Positions 1,539 through 10,896 of a stretch of 11,900 nt of DNA are shown here, one piece after another. The position numbers and the translations under genes were made by a program. The notes under the pieces were generated by a model that was not told the origin of the DNA, made no database searches, and saw nothing but the letters and a program-made list of their open reading frames with translations. Origin of the DNA: a virus; UHGV virus genome UHGV-0199485. The stretch is one strand, 5' to 3'. The first letter of the stretch is position 1. The number at the start of each line of letters is the position of its first letter.

Positions 1539-2312
1539 TCAGTAGCGCTTGTTAGGATTAACAGACAGCCTCTTCAAAACATTACCTGCACCAGCATTAT
1601 TAAGCACTTTCGAAGCTTGCCCATTAGCGGCATCTGAGAAGGTGCTTTTTCCATTCTCAACTCTGACACTTTTACTACAATTGATACGGGCTTGAAGTTG
1701 CTCATTAGAAAGTTCACTCGCAGAGCGATTATATAGCTCCTGACACATCAACATACCATTACCTAAACTTGTCGTAGTGTTCCCAGTGTTCTTTTTACTG
1801 GTAGCACCACCATCATTCGTGGTAGCGGTCTTGCCAGTAGCAGATGAAATATCAGTTTGCCCTACAATGGCTTTGAAGTTAATTTCCTGAAAAGTTAACT
1901 GGATTCTCAGACCATTTGAAATACCAACATCTTTAGAGGCTTTAAAGCTCGTGATAATGGAATCATCAATTTTAATTCCGTCTTTACAGATGACTGAAAT
2001 AATCTGCTTCTGGTCACGCCAGCTTTCAAGAGTGTCGATGAAGTTTTCTACTAATTGCCCCTGACGAGTTAATAATAAGCTACCTTCATAGCCAACTACA
2101 ACGACACCACTAATAGTGATTGTTCTGGGTGCTCTTTGCACATTATCTGTGACGGTTTGCCCTGATTGCATGTTCTGTGTAGTAACCTGCATAGGGCTGT
2201 CAAATTCCATGTTTTCAGTAGCTGATAAGGTTAAGAAGGCATCTACATTGTCTCTTAAGTGGAAATAGATGCCGTCTTTGCCAGTGTAACGAAGCTGATT
2301 AGTGTAAATCAT
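1539..2312 (-). CDS. Putative phage tail protein directly downstream of the tape-measure gene (distal-tail-protein position)
   Basis: ORF track gives 264 aa from an in-frame TTG at 2333. The first ATG (2312-2310) is preceded by AAGGAG at 6-nt spacing, so a 257-aa product from 2312 is preferred. Beta-rich N-terminal half, then a Thr/Asn/Gly-rich linker. The functional call rests on gene order after the tape-measure gene, not on a recognised motif. Confidence 0.5.
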
Positions 2313-2388: not shown

Positions 2389-2458
2389 TCTGTTAAGCGT
2401 GAGCTACGTGAAAAATAATTTTTGGTGGGTATATCTGTTCAGGAGATTTCACGTAGCA
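2389..2458. repeat. Copy A of a 70-bp conserved dyad element (candidate activator-dependent promoter or recombination-type site)
   Basis: tctgttaagcgtgag-CTACGTGAAA-33 bp-TTTCACGTAG-ca. 68/70 identical to copy B (4534-4603). The 10-bp inverted-repeat arms are at 2404-2413 and 2447-2456. It lies between the tape-measure stop (2470) and the start of the next leftward gene (2312). Confidence 0.8.
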
Positions 2459-4533: not shown

Positions 4534-4603
4534 TCTGTTAAGCGTGAGCTACGTAAAAAATAATTTTTGGTGGGTATATCTGTTCAGAAGATTTCACGTA
4601 GCA
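4534..4603. repeat. Copy B of the 70-bp conserved dyad element
   Basis: Same sequence as copy A with two substitutions (left arm CTACGTAAAA; core CAGAAGA vs CAGGAGA). It ends 15 bp upstream of the tape-measure ATG and directly follows a terminator-like hairpin. Confidence 0.8.
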
Positions 4604-4610
4604 CACATAC

Positions 4611-4653
4611 AAAAAAGGGAGAAACTACCGAATAATATCGATAATCTCTCCCC
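4611..4653 (-). terminator. Candidate rho-independent terminator for the 234-aa/71-aa transcription unit
   Basis: On the minus strand a 6-bp GC-rich stem (4617-4622 pairing with 4647-4652, GGGAGA/TCTCCC) with a 24-nt loop is followed by U6 (complement of A6 at 4611-4616). It sits about 50 nt after the 71-aa gene stop. The large loop weakens the call. Confidence 0.45.
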
Positions 4654-4701
4654 GTGTTATAGATTCGATAGAACCTATCTCATACACCCAACCAATCTTT
4701 T

Positions 4702-5762: not shown

Positions 5763-6010
5763 TAGCCCTAGATAATTTCTTATAAAGGGCCATTCATAAG
5801 GTGAAGAAATTAAAAGAACATCTAAAGGATTCAAATGAATGAACAAAGATTTTTGATATGGCCTATTTAGTGTGGGCTAAATAAGCCATGACGAAAAGCA
5901 TTGCACCTTTCAGAATAACTATCCCTAGATGTAGATGGAATTGTTGAAAGAAATAAGAGAGAATTGCTCTCCCTATAGACTTCGGATAGAAGACTATCCT
6001 CATATATACA

Positions 6011-6464: not shown

Positions 6465-6651
6465 TTCTTAAAATCCTCTATGAGATAGTTTCTATCTAAT
6501 CCTATAAAACACATCTCAGACCTGCCAAAATAGCCATTCTGAGGCCAATAACCATGCGGGTTACAGAGGGAGTTGCACTGGCTGGTAAGGTAATTTATCA
6601 AATTAAGGTGCAACTCTGCCTGTAAAGTGCATTCTACCGTTACTTAGATGG

Positions 6652-7077
6652 TTATTTTGAATTGTCTTTATTAATCAATGATTTAACGTAGAAATACTGC
6701 CTCCGTGAAATACCATATTTTTCTGTGATGTATCGCTGAGATTGACCAGCATTTATGGCCTGAGTGATATCATCACGGTTATAGCGGTTACCACGGGATT
6801 TATATTTGTCACCATCCACATCTTCTGATGTATTGAAGTCTTCAATCAGCTTAATTGCATCGTGAAGGTCATCTTCTGAGGCATAATCGAAGGTATGGAT
6901 AATCTCAAAATCACCAGTATCTGCTGGTGCATTCTTCCATCTGGAGAAGCGGGATTTTAATTGCTGGTGTGTGAAAGGTTCAGCATTACGAGTTAAATCT
7001 TTCCATGTTCCGCTATTCTCACGGACAAGGTGGCCTCTATGGCGATAAAACGCATGATAATCAAATGTGCATAGCAT
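6652..7077 (-). CDS. Putative transcriptional regulator with C-terminal helix-turn-helix (Mor/C-like or resolvase-HTH-like)
   Basis: C-terminal segment RDDITQAINAGQSQRYITEKYGISRRQYFYV fits a DNA-binding HTH. The start codon overlaps the stop of the upstream gene (TAATG, 7075-7079), implying translational coupling. Confidence 0.55.
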   Translation of the reverse strand: MLCTFDYHAFYRHRGHLVRENSGTWKDLTRNAEPFTHQQLKSRFSRWKNAPADTGDFEIIHTFDYASEDDLHDAIKLIEDFNTSEDVDGDKYKSRGNRYNRDDITQAINAGQSQRYITEKYGISRRQYFYVKSLINKDNSK

Positions 7078-7402: not shown

Positions 7403-7453
7403 ATCTTAACATTTATTTAACATGTTGTCAACATCTCATTTACATGATATTAT
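7403..7453. promoter_or_regulatory. Divergent back-to-back promoters sharing a 13-bp palindromic operator
   Basis: Leftward: TTGACA (7431-7426), 17 bp, TAAGAT (7408-7403). Rightward: TTGTCA (7425-7430), 17 bp, TATTAT (7448-7453). The two -35 hexamers overlap inside the palindrome ATGTTG-t-CAACAT (7422-7434). Confidence 0.5.
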
Positions 7454-7689: not shown

Positions 7690-7986
7690 TTACCGGCACT
7701 TTCCCTTGATAATATTGGTGGCCCTCAGATTACCGGGGTCACCGTCTTTTAATCGTAGCTGGTGGACTGAATCCCAGATATCATAATGATACAGCACTGC
7801 AAACCTCAAAGCGTCAATCTTTAAATCTGTCACACCATCAAAAAAGAAATAATTCTTTCCTTCCTTCTTCGGTCGAATCCGGTAAACCTCCCCATGAGTA
7901 TCTTTCAGAAGATGACCTTCACGAGAAATGCTGTAGCGCCTTAATAGATAATCTTTGTATCGTTTTTCACCGTTATATTCTCTCAT
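7690..7986 (-). CDS. Hypothetical 98-aa protein translationally coupled to the replication initiator (weak HNH-like motif)
   Basis: Its ATG overlaps the rep stop (ATGA, 7983-7986) and GGAGGT lies 5 nt upstream. C-terminal VHQLRLKDGDPGNLRATN loosely resembles an HNH-type motif but lacks the canonical residue pair, so a nuclease assignment is tentative. Confidence 0.5.
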   Translation of the reverse strand: MREYNGEKRYKDYLLRRYSISREGHLLKDTHGEVYRIRPKKEGKNYFFFDGVTDLKIDALRFAVLYHYDIWDSVHQLRLKDGDPGNLRATNIIKGKCR

Positions 7987-8897
7987 TGGATACCTCCACC
8001 TGCATAGTACATTTTAGGCTTAACCCTTTGCTTCTTATTTTCACTAACTACTTTCTTCTTTGGTGTGAAAGAAAAGTCATCATCGTCACCATCATCAAAG
8101 TCATCGAGGTCATTAACCTTGTTCTTTAGCTTCGCCATTTCAATGCGTGATTTAATCTCTGCTTTGCGTTGTGCTTTTTTAATAGCCTCTTCACGCTCTG
8201 ACTCTTCATCAAGGTAATCATCGAAGGGGTCCATCTCATCATCAGTGGCGGGGCACTGTGTGTTTTTATGGTCACTATCAACATTCACATCAGAGATTTT
8301 ATCCTCCTCTAAGTCAGATGTTTTAGAAGCCTCTTTAGTAGCTTCACTATCAAGGTCAGATTCATTCATAGAGAGAAAATCATTTAATTCATCCAAAGAA
8401 AGAAAGTCATCTTCTTTATTGTTATTAATAAGTTCTTTCTTGTTATTACTGTTATTATACGTGTCAAAGATTTTGACTGACTGAGTAAAAAATTTTGACT
8501 CAGTGGGTAAAGAATTTTGACTCAGTGGGTCATCTTTCTTGACTGACTGAGTAACTTTAGACTCCAGCTTTGCCTTTCTGGCTTCCTTAGCTGTAAGCTC
8601 TGTTAAAACTTCCGGTACTTCATCAAGTGAATAAACTTTAATAACACACTGATTGCTTGCAACGTTAGTTTTCTTGATTAAACCATGTGCCTCAAGTCGT
8701 TTCATACATGCAATCACGGATGTTCTTGTGATTCCAGCATACTGACCAAGATGAGCATATGAAGGGGTATAATATTGCCCCTTATCGTGATAAAACTTCT
8801 GTTCATTCAACATGACAGTGTAAATAATACGGTCGGCAGCTTTAACGCCATTAGTCATCTGATAAATACGGTCATCAAACATGTGGAATTTTTCCAT
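7983..8897 (-). CDS. Replication initiator protein (winged-helix, RepA_N-like N-terminal domain) with acidic C-terminal tail
   Basis: Preferred start is ATG 8897-8895 (MEKFHMFDD...), preceded by AAGGAAAA at 7-nt spacing; the ORF-track start at 8954 has no RBS. N-terminal ...DRIIYTVMLNEQKFYHDKGQYYTPSYAHLGQYAGITRTSVIACMKRLEAHGLIKK... resembles the DNA-binding domain of RepA_N-type initiators. Iterons and an AT-rich tract lie inside the coding sequence. The C-terminus is a poly-Asp/Glu tail (DDFDDGDDDDF). Confidence 0.6.
   Translation of the reverse strand: MEKFHMFDDRIYQMTNGVKAADRIIYTVMLNEQKFYHDKGQYYTPSYAHLGQYAGITRTSVIACMKRLEAHGLIKKTNVASNQCVIKVYSLDEVPEVLTELTAKEARKAKLESKVTQSVKKDDPLSQNSLPTESKFFTQSVKIFDTYNNSNNKKELINNNKEDDFLSLDELNDFLSMNESDLDSEATKEASKTSDLEEDKISDVNVDSDHKNTQCPATDDEMDPFDDYLDEESEREEAIKKAQRKAEIKSRIEMAKLKNKVNDLDDFDDGDDDDFSFTPKKKVVSENKKQRVKPKMYYAGGGIQ
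8471..8554. repeat. Four iterons at exact 22-bp spacing (candidate origin of replication inside the rep gene)
   Basis: TTTTGACTGACTGAGTAA (8471), TTTTGACTCAGTGGGTAA (8493), TTTTGACTCAGTGGGTCA (8515), TCTTGACTGACTGAGTAA (8537). An AT-rich tract (about 8395-8465) flanks them on the low-coordinate side. On the coding strand they encode a low-complexity linker. Confidence 0.55.
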
Positions 8898-9763: not shown

Positions 9764-9856
9764 CGTACCGATATAGCATACTAAAAAGGTATAGCTAACC
9801 CCCTGTAAAAACCATACCGATTAGCCTTGTAAAACACTTTATCGGTACGTTATACT
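9764..9856 (+). promoter_or_regulatory. Candidate recombinase promoter overlapped by symmetric TACCGAT motifs (possible res-like or autoregulatory site)
   Basis: TTGTAA (9827-9832), 18 bp, TATACT (9851-9856). Inverted repeat CGTACCGAT (9764-9772) / ATCGGTACG (9841-9849), plus a third TACCGAT at 9815-9821. Confidence 0.35.
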
Positions 9857-9891: not shown

Positions 9892-10434
9892 ATGGCTAAC
9901 ATCGGTTATGTTCGAGTTTCAACAATCCAGCAGATTACAGACCGTCAACTTGAAGGGGTCGTACTGGATAAGGTATTTACTGATAAAGCATCTGGGAAGA
10001 ATACAGACCGTCCACAACTAAAGGCTATGCTCGATTATGTTCGTGAAGGTGACACTATCCATGTACACGACCTGTCACGTTTAGGGCGTTCTACCGTGGA
10101 TGTATTAACGCTGGTGGATAAACTTTCACAGAGAGGTATCAAGGTTCACTTTCACAAAGAAGGTCTGATAACTGGTGACGATAACCCCACGTCTAAGATG
10201 ATTCTCACAATCTTTTCAGCAGTGGCTGAAGCTGAACGTAAAATGATGCTTGAGCGTCAACGAGAAGGCTATGAAGCTGCTAAAGCTGCTGGTCGTGTAG
10301 TTGGAAGGGGTAACGGTAAAGCGATTGACAGAGAAGGTATTAAAGCTGCTCTTGCTGCTGGTAGTTCAATCGCTAAAGTAGCCGCTCAATTCAACGTTGC
10401 CAAGTCAACTGTACAGCGTATTAAAGCTGAATAA
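9892..10434 (+). CDS. Small serine recombinase (resolvase / DNA invertase family)
   Basis: N-terminus MANIGYVRVSTIQQ with the catalytic serine, a resolvase catalytic core (..DLSRLGRS..), a Gly-rich linker and a C-terminal HTH (SIAKVAAQFNVAKSTVQRIKAE). The ORF track starts 8 codons upstream at 9868; 9892 is preferred from the family N-terminal pattern and promoter position. Neither start has a strong RBS. Confidence 0.85.
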   Translation: MANIGYVRVSTIQQITDRQLEGVVLDKVFTDKASGKNTDRPQLKAMLDYVREGDTIHVHDLSRLGRSTVDVLTLVDKLSQRGIKVHFHKEGLITGDDNPTSKMILTIFSAVAEAERKMMLERQREGYEAAKAAGRVVGRGNGKAIDREGIKAALAAGSSIAKVAAQFNVAKSTVQRIKAE

Positions 10435-10460
10435 TTTCTCATCACCTATATAGATTCATG

Positions 10461-10484
10461 GCCTCCTTAATTGGGGGCTTTTTT
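10461..10484 (+). terminator. Rho-independent terminator after the small serine recombinase gene
   Basis: GCCTCC (10461-10466), loop TTAATT, GGGGGC (10473-10478) with one G-U pair, followed by T6 (10479-10484). It lies 27 nt after the stop codon. Confidence 0.6.
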
Positions 10485-10490
10485 GTATCC

Positions 10491-10582
10491 TCTAAGCGTG
10501 TACTACGTGATGATTCGGATAAGAATTATCCTCATAAAATCTCCTGAACACTTACCCACCCTCAGAAATAACTTTCACGTAG
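10491..10582. repeat. Copy C of the dyad element, with the core in opposite orientation and 29 bp longer
   Basis: Shares TAAGCGTG-nn-CTACGTGA (10493-10510) and TTTCACGTAG (10573-10582) with copies A/B. Its 62-bp core contains AAATCTCCTGAACAC-TTACCCACC, the reverse complement of the A/B core GGTGGGTATATCTGTTCAGGAGATTT. Confidence 0.7.
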
Positions 10583-10655
10583 GAAATCGTTAAGGGTTTT
10601 ATAGTTACACTATGTGACCAACTGCATGAATAGCGTTATATATCCCTGTATATAG

Positions 10656-10671
10656 CACTATATATATAGTG
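10656..10671. promoter_or_regulatory. Perfect 16-bp palindrome CACTATATATATAGTG (operator-like)
   Basis: Exact palindrome in the intergenic region between element copy C and the 3' end of the 277-aa gene. A TATAGCA motif also recurs upstream of the recombinase (about 9771-9795). Confidence 0.3.
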
Positions 10672-10896
10672 TCTGGAGAGGAACGACTAACACGATACAG
10701 TTTACCCTGAAAAGAGACTTCACAGATTCTTTATATATTTCAATGAGTTAGGATAAAAAGGGACTATACCGATACTGCATAGAATCTGTGTAAAACTGCT
10801 TAGATATTTGAAGAAATACCGTTAAATTGCATAGTCATAGGGGTTGGAACAAGCCCAACTACACCTGTTTATGTCCTGTTATTTACAGGCATAGCA

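Follow-up and report, generated by a model that had tools for sequence, protein, structure and literature searches.

The third of three short dyad elements (copies A, B and C) in the stretch of DNA analysed here, which we call the window (11.9 kb), carries a core that is turned round relative to the cores of the other two. It lies 6 nt past the terminator of a gene of the resolvase/invertase family, a distance given in the original prediction and reproduced when we counted from the T-run of that terminator. The locus thus raises the question of whether the dyad is a module that can be flipped, possibly by the enzyme encoded next to it, or whether C is a site that has diverged from its sisters.

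The window is a chromosomal island of E. coli, integrative and about 11 kb in length. Related islands were found in 569 of 5,426 complete E. coli genomes, that is, in about a tenth, and were chromosomal in every case; they occupied several integration sites, for example within yecE, in the tonB-yciI interval and beside dinB. In addition to several genes of no assigned kind, the island holds the following features:

1-1524: large serine integrase gene.
1539-2312, minus strand: Dit-like tail/baseplate gene, its product 80% identical in amino acids to ekra_87 of phage ekra.
2470-4518, minus strand: tape measure protein gene, its N- and C-termini like those of the Felixounavirus tape measure protein.
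7983-8897: lambda-O-like replication initiator gene, with iterons inside the gene.
9892-10434, plus strand: small serine recombinase gene (Resolvase and HTH_7 domains), closest to the gamma-delta/Tn3 resolvase.
10460-10484, plus strand: intrinsic terminator of the recombinase gene.

It is at both of its ends that the tape-measure protein has sequence in common with the Felixounavirus phage protein, and parts of the two tail genes reached 90-95% DNA identity to virulent Felixounavirus phages.

All three copies of the dyad share a flank, TAAGCGTG-nn, and 10-bp inverted arms, CTACGTGAAA and TTTCACGTAG, around a centre of 33 nt. Measured from arm to arm, A extends over 2404-2456, B over 4549-4601 and C over 10503-10582, and their parts are arranged as follows:

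2392-2456, minus strand: copy A, consisting of flank, arm (2404-2413), 33-nt loop and arm (2447-2456), located between the stop codon of the tape-measure gene and the Dit-like gene.
4537-4601, minus strand: copy B, the same cassette, between a terminator (4616-4653) and the ribosome-binding site of the tape-measure gene.
10493-10502: conserved flank of copy C, TAAGCGTGTA, which on the minus strand is TACACGCTTA, the leader-side flank.
10503-10510: left arm of copy C, CTACGTGA; the last two A of the arm were moved to 10538-10539 by an insertion.
10511-10537, minus strand: net 27-nt insertion in copy C, a mini-hairpin of the family motif2, reading TATGAGGATAATTCTTATCCGAATCA on the minus strand.
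10540-10572: loop or core of copy C, TCTCCTGAACACTTACCCACCCTCAGAAATAAC, 33 nt, in the reverse complement orientation of the A/B core.
10573-10582: right arm of copy C, TTTCACGTAG.
10583-10595: right flank of copy C, GAAATCGTTAAGG; A copies in relatives have a homologous right flank (AACACCGTTAAAT, CAAACTGTTAATT).

Copies A and B are 97% identical over 70 nt. As 70-nt direct repeats (2389-2458 and 4534-4603) they bracket the whole tape-measure gene, and homologous recombination between them would remove it.

The combined flank and arm, TAAGCGTGNNCTACGTRA, matched exactly three times in the window, at 2394, 4539 and 10493, with 0.01 matches expected by chance. All three matches were on the plus strand, so that C keeps the left flank and arm orientation of A and B, as had been predicted. 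The core word AAATCTCCTGAACA was found on the minus strand in A and B and on the plus strand in C, and the longest inverted pair of the window joins 2404-2449 to 10537-10582 (46 nt, 74%). Relatives of the island hold clean C copies, with a 33-nt loop and without the insertion (L005, L107, L108, L124, L143 and L144). Over the 33-nt centre such a clean copy agreed with the reverse complement of A at 21 of 33 positions, compared with 7 of 33 for A read directly. Only 6 of 100,000 shuffles reached 21/33, and the similarity of the inverted core, aligned base by base, therefore exceeds chance. The core of C matches, as predicted, the reverse complement of the A/B core.

The flanks of the dyad are themselves partly palindromic, with TTAA lying 8-11 nt outside each arm in many copies, and we considered whether the whole element had been inverted through them. 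This was rejected: the left flank of C was identical at 13 of 14 positions to the left flank of a B copy (that of L105) and at no more than 9 of 14 to any reverse-complemented right flank, and ACACGCTTA was an invariant flank, in 21 of 21 distinct copies, only once C was read on the minus strand. On its other side C is flanked by CTTAACAGTTTC, which is its 5' flank when C is read on the minus strand and which matched the flank of an A copy (ATTAACAGTTTG). Downstream of C on the same strand, ACACGCTTAGAGAGTGGATACAAAAAAG resembles the tape-measure leader ACACGCTTAAAGAGGTGAAATATGAAC, and the sequence after C looks like a decayed tape-measure leader with its ribosome-binding site and start. The frame is thus co-oriented at all three sites, further outward than the original prediction had noticed, and only the part from arm through loop to arm is reversed. 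This is the footprint that had been foreseen, namely DNA between short inverted repeats turned round.

A 29-bp insertion in C had been counted as part of this footprint. An insertion is indeed present, with a net size of 27 nt, but it is separate from the inversion, being an independent mini-hairpin and a member of the motif2 family. This family consists of mini-hairpins of 20-28 nt, built as (Y)ATGAG-stem-loop-stem-GAATCA, in more than 20 sequence variants whose stems covary. Three further copies were located in the window:

4662-4684, minus strand: motif2 copy.
5978-6003, minus strand: motif2 copy, directly downstream of a strong promoter-like sequence (6039->6011) and upstream of a terminator-like hairpin (5974-5956).
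6479-6501, plus strand: motif2 copy, in the opposite orientation.

Copies of motif2 occur in both orientations, are inserted at many sites in the related islands (L002-L144) and differ in presence and absence among relatives; the behaviour of the family is that of a very small, island-specific insertional element, and some motif2 sites have short direct repeats (ACTAT, ATC). The same insertion as in C, with identical junctions, was found in copy B of L131 and L138, where it adjoins the arm at the AAATCT end of the loop, on the opposite frame side from that in the C of the window. Since one insertion stands on opposite frame sides, either arm-plus-loop segments passed from one copy to another in antiparallel register, or the insertion came first and the loop was turned afterwards.

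Reversal of a spacer between short inverted repeats, through RecA-independent recombination or template switching at quasi-palindromes, has been described for E. coli plasmids. The dyad resembles these cases in that a short reversed spacer lies between repeats of 10 bp, or of up to about 21 bp if the outer flank is counted, with repeats and flanks left in place, and in that a rare event was followed by fixation; it differs in that the event is deduced from paralogs and orthologs and was not observed happening. The opposite frame sides of the shared insertion suggest antiparallel gene conversion between sister copies as an equally good route. Two routes had been proposed for the inversion. A non-enzymatic one, by template switching or recombination at the arms of the hairpin, fits best, and the part proposed for the neighbouring recombinase is unsupported.

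The three sites are not alike in their occupancy. Site A was filled in every examined island that keeps the junction of the tape-measure and Dit-like genes, always with a loop of 33 or 34 nt, and this held even in the most divergent islands. Site B is optional, being empty or occupied by motif2 only in many relatives. Within E. coli genomes, copies of the dyad were restricted to this island family, at a median of one place per genome; none was found elsewhere in these genomes or in 185,579 species representatives, and none outside Escherichia/Shigella. A search of genome contigs with the flank-plus-arm pattern returned almost only chance matches. The complete genome of the related helper-type phage ekra contained no paired arms, core or motif2, and a phage collection gave no significant match to the dyad; a dyad that mimics a promoter or site of the helper phage was rejected on these grounds. 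Searched against Rfam, the whole window gave no relevant match at E<=1. The dyad is not an intrinsic terminator, as the terminator scan was negative and no T-run follows either arm on either strand. Readings of GTTAAG/CTCACG(C)TTAA as integron attC-like or Tn3 inverted-repeat-like were set aside as short resemblances with the other defining parts missing, and none of the sigma-54, sigma-E, MotA-box, IHF, CRP, TyrR or NarL sites, compared by eye, fitted across the core types.

We propose that the dyad would be a cis-acting leader cassette, made up of the arms, the 33-nt centre and then, on the minus strand, the invariant flank ACACGCTTA, which leads into the ribosome-binding site that serves the tape-measure or Dit-like gene. 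Its action on the minus strand would most likely be that of a transcribed stem-loop, in a 5'-UTR or an intercistronic RNA, with a putative role in processing, in stability or in the binding of a regulator; what counts would be the stem and the 3' flank, and the sequence and orientation of the loop would matter little. C would be a paralog in the same frame orientation beside a decayed leader and ribosome-binding site, probably a relic, whose loop would have been turned a single time, when its palindromic arms, or the arms of a sister copy, served for recombination or template switching. The 27-nt mini-hairpin would have entered C later. The orientation of C is now fixed, so that C is not a switch, nor does it serve as a substrate for the resolvase encoded beside it. 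Taking the leader cassette, the minus-strand stem-loop and C as a fixed paralog jointly, we give this account a little better than an even chance.

The arms provide the evidence for a particular strand. On the minus strand the eight outer arm pairs were almost always paired, with 91% of arm cells paired. One-sided changes in the arms produced G.U wobbles on this strand (16 cells), together with one GC->AU compensation; the same changes on the plus strand are C.A mismatches. By a rough count, independent wobble-making changes numbered 11-12 on the minus strand versus 2 on the plus strand (binomial p roughly 0.01). Covariation shuffle controls were marginal (33/500 and 45/500), and there was only one compensatory pair. 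These substitutions, which at all three sites are almost all G.U-compatible, suggest a strand-specific stem-loop in which the orientation of the loop carries little weight. Strand-biased C->T mutation could be an alternative source of the G.U asymmetry. The composition skew at third positions follows the sense strand of each gene, and any bias that transcription of the recombinase gene imposed on C would therefore run in the opposite direction. As minus-strand RNA, A folded at -16 kcal/mol and B at -17 kcal/mol; relative to shuffles their z-scores were -4.1 and -3.2, respectively.

The loop would be dispensable in sequence, since its length stays constant at 33-34 nt across five or more core types, of which one (L002) bears no sequence relation to the others. 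Site C is hypervariable, with six architectures that include empty sites, as is expected of a relic; no gene follows C on the minus strand, so that any function of C there is no more than putative. Two observations count against the RNA reading as such. Arm and flank are conserved as sequence beyond what pairing needs, which also fits a protein-binding site, and an unstructured loop of 33 nt is unusual for a functional RNA hairpin. Hairpins that process or stabilise phage mRNA, such as the RNase III sites of T7 and protective 5' stem-loops, offer the nearest functional comparison: the dyad likewise stands between cistrons, just upstream of ribosome-binding sites in a tail-gene operon, and copies with both outer flanks could form an irregular extended stem of about 20 bp. 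In contrast to those hairpins, its loop is large and its conservation exceeds the need for pairing. The RNA stem-loop is thus favoured but not established.

Conservation of the arm sequence itself is also what a DNA-level promoter or operator cassette would predict, an alternative that we hold to be unlikely but worth weighing closely. The loop would then be a weak activator-dependent promoter, TGAACA-18-TAnnnT, with its start inside the downstream arm; the arms, which lie about four helical turns apart, and the flank would be operator half-sites for a host, helper or island protein, and in C the promoter would have been turned so as to fire rightward into a conserved block at the right end of the island. 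Most core types do have a TAnnnT hexamer in the corresponding position (TATTTT, TAGATT, TAGAAT, TAACTT), and in several of them TGAACA lies 18 nt upstream; however, core types T3, T4 and T5 lack the -35 hexamer, T5 lacks the -10 as well, and in a promoter scan no copy of the dyad reached the threshold for a consensus sigma-70 promoter. Loop polarity at A and B always agrees with the downstream gene, and copy B stands behind a strong terminator; yet site B is empty in many islands, which implies that this gene does not need B. To the right of C there is nothing coding and no structured RNA for a turned promoter to serve, no DNA-binding protein is common to all islands, and, to judge by their G.U pattern, both arms are transcribed.

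The presence and absence of copies at sites B and C could instead reflect a selfish, MITE-like element, a mobile cassette of arm, core and arm that landed beside TTAAGYGT in either orientation and has no function for the island. The dyad has terminal inverted repeats, its arms are better conserved than its core, the flank-like sequence TTAAGTGTT is present at empty sites, and a second, clearly insertional family of mini-hairpins inhabits the same islands. We nevertheless find this doubtful: pairs of filled and empty sites at B and C gave no clean target-site duplication, copies are confined to three fixed sites of this one island family, and site A is always occupied, at constant loop length, even in the most divergent islands. 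The same balance is met when the dyad is set beside Correia elements (CREE), ERIC and REP/BIME. Like them it is a short intergenic unit with terminal inverted repeats, forms hairpins that would be co-transcribed with neighbouring genes, has an internal part in either orientation and is polymorphic in presence and absence; unlike them it stands at three fixed sites of one island family, with no target duplication and no Rfam match.

The possibility that the core is still being turned was addressed by comparing orthologous loci. In about 60 islands, drawn from genomes of E. coli and from gut metagenomes (including L002-L005, L103-L133 and L136-L144), the loops of all A and B copies pointed one way and those of all C copies the other. 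Synthetic flipped versions of A, B and C were searched by BLAST against the 5,426 E. coli genomes, and none of the three was present in any of them; the best full-length identities, 82.4%, 80.9% and 75.9%, are the values given by the unflipped copies. No site showed polymorphism of orientation, whether in the 393-466 matching genomes for A and B, the 175 for C, or the metagenome contigs. The related genomes thus offered one orientation per site where a flip-able module had been envisaged, and the orientation of C is an old, one-off rearrangement that is now fixed, not a working switch. Moreover, all anchors were collinear in all loci, with no inversion or deletion bounded by dyads.

Two readings keep the core mobile in spite of this. 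In the first, which we consider very improbable, the polarity of the cassette could be reset: the arms would recombine at a useful frequency only in the excised, replicating island within a helper-infected cell, re-orienting the loop signal or swapping loops and their mini-hairpin passengers among the three sites, and chromosomal assemblies would display the resting state. In the second, the neighbouring serine recombinase or another enzyme would flip the core between the 10-bp arms, the copies being snapshots of phase variation. The segment does lie between inverted repeats and does occur in both orientations when paralogs are compared, and a resolvase/invertase-family gene ends 58 bp upstream of the C flank, features shared with invertons such as fimS with FimB/FimE, hin/hix and the Mpi-controlled promoters of Bacteroides. 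In contrast to those systems, the orientation of the dyad is fixed at each site across hundreds of genomes, there is no consensus promoter, and the recombinase is interchangeable or absent. The inverted segment is only 33 nt, far shorter than the known substrates of serine invertases and below the size that is synapsed and inverted. The active switch is largely refuted, and we leave it hardly any probability.

The slot beside C either lacked a recombinase or was occupied by a small serine recombinase of one of three kinds, which share about 36% identity and are encoded on either strand. The arms of the dyad were unchanged whichever recombinase occupied the slot, C-type dyads stood beside two recombinases only about 36% identical, and A-type dyads were present in islands without any small recombinase. 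The dyad is therefore independent of the neighbouring recombinase, and C is not a substrate of the adjacent resolvase. For the enzyme of the window, a better candidate site lies upstream of its gene:

9765-9848: candidate res-like site, with GTACCGATA half-sites at 9765 (plus strand), 9813 (plus strand, one mismatch) and 9840 (minus strand).

Two of these half-sites are inverted and 57 nt apart, with the third between them, and they overlap a promoter-like site of the recombinase gene. In L002-type islands, GTCTCAWAAG repeats likewise fit a res-type site better than the dyad does. A module flipped by this enzyme is thus unsupported, because the recombinase is interchangeable or absent, resembles a resolvase and has half-sites of its own upstream. 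Although the arms have the outline of resolvase half-sites (a specific 6-7 bp followed by an A/T tract), and A and B flank the tape-measure gene as direct repeats, with C inverted relative to them, it is scarcely credible that the dyads are res or accessory sites of the small recombinase, serving multimer resolution or the deletion or inversion of segments between them: they do not depend on the type or presence of recombinase, the 53-bp span from arm to arm does not fit res subsites, the anchors are collinear in all loci, and better candidate sites stand beside each recombinase gene. A fourth, near-identical GTACCGATA word was noted at 10766, within the conserved right-end block. The recombinase slot before that block is a cassette site (L002, L005, L104 and others), and some islands carry a DNA adenine methyltransferase or an HNH endonuclease near it.

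The island itself looks like an undescribed phage satellite or a tail-interference island; a literature search found no description of such an island. Like PICI, P4-like and PLE satellites it is small and integrative, with an integrase, an iteron-bearing replication initiator and homologs of helper structural genes, and unlike them it has Felixounavirus-related tape-measure and Dit-like genes and a large serine integrase. Iterons of 22 nt (GTCAAAGATTTTGACTGACTGA and variants) at 8463-8550, within the O-like initiator gene, are probably its replication origin. Several gut-metagenome contigs (L104, L106, L108, L109, L112 and L124; 11.0-12.0 kb) have the size of a whole island, and another, L119, is circularly permuted, running from the Dit-like gene through the integrase to the right-end block; together these contigs hint at excised circular or packaged forms.

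The right-end block (10640-10880) is a non-coding stretch of about 240 nt kept in every island, whatever its type of integrase or recombinase. It stops at the hairpin CCTGTTATTTACAGG, beyond which sequences differ by integration site. It contained no conserved ORF and no convincing RNA structure (alifold -13 kcal/mol over 259 columns), and a structured RNA driven from C was rejected as its nature; it may act at the level of DNA, in packaging, in recombination directionality or as a replication origin. Elsewhere in the island a perfect 20-nt inverted repeat, TCGTGAAGGTCATCTTCTGA, occurs at 6860-6879 and 7905-7924, 1 kb apart and in two different ORFs, bracketing a region of divergent promoters (7403-7453); the pair is also found in L002 and L122. 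Its inverted junction was present in no genome, and it was rejected as a real invertible segment.

On the minus strand, ahead of the tail genes, a near-consensus promoter, TTGACA-17-CATAAT with TG (6039->6011), is followed by a mini-hairpin and then by the terminator-like hairpin at 5974-5956, and a second strong terminator (4653-4616) directly precedes the tape-measure gene. Expression of the tail-gene operon would therefore seem to depend on read-through or antitermination. Similar junctions of hairpin, TTTT and ribosome-binding site were noted in the late operons of the related phage. The proteins of 234 and 71 amino acids encoded upstream of the tape-measure gene showed no similarity to phage tape-measure chaperones and were rejected as their homologs.

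In summary, the inverted core of C is ordinary, if neat, molecular evolution within the class of palindromic intergenic cassettes, and the stakes of this finding itself are modest. It is a clean natural case of reversal, followed by fixation, of the spacer that separates two short inverted repeats, and it also shows that material was exchanged, in antiparallel register, among sister copies of a palindromic cassette. It is also a warning that an inverted core beside a recombinase gene is insufficient to call a phase switch. The context matters more; the host island and its mini-hairpin family are also more unusual than the inverted core. About one in ten complete E. coli genomes carries an island in which this cassette marks the leaders of tape-measure and Dit-like genes, and if the stem-loop controls these tail genes, it would give access to the timing with which a possible satellite or tail-interference island attacks phage.
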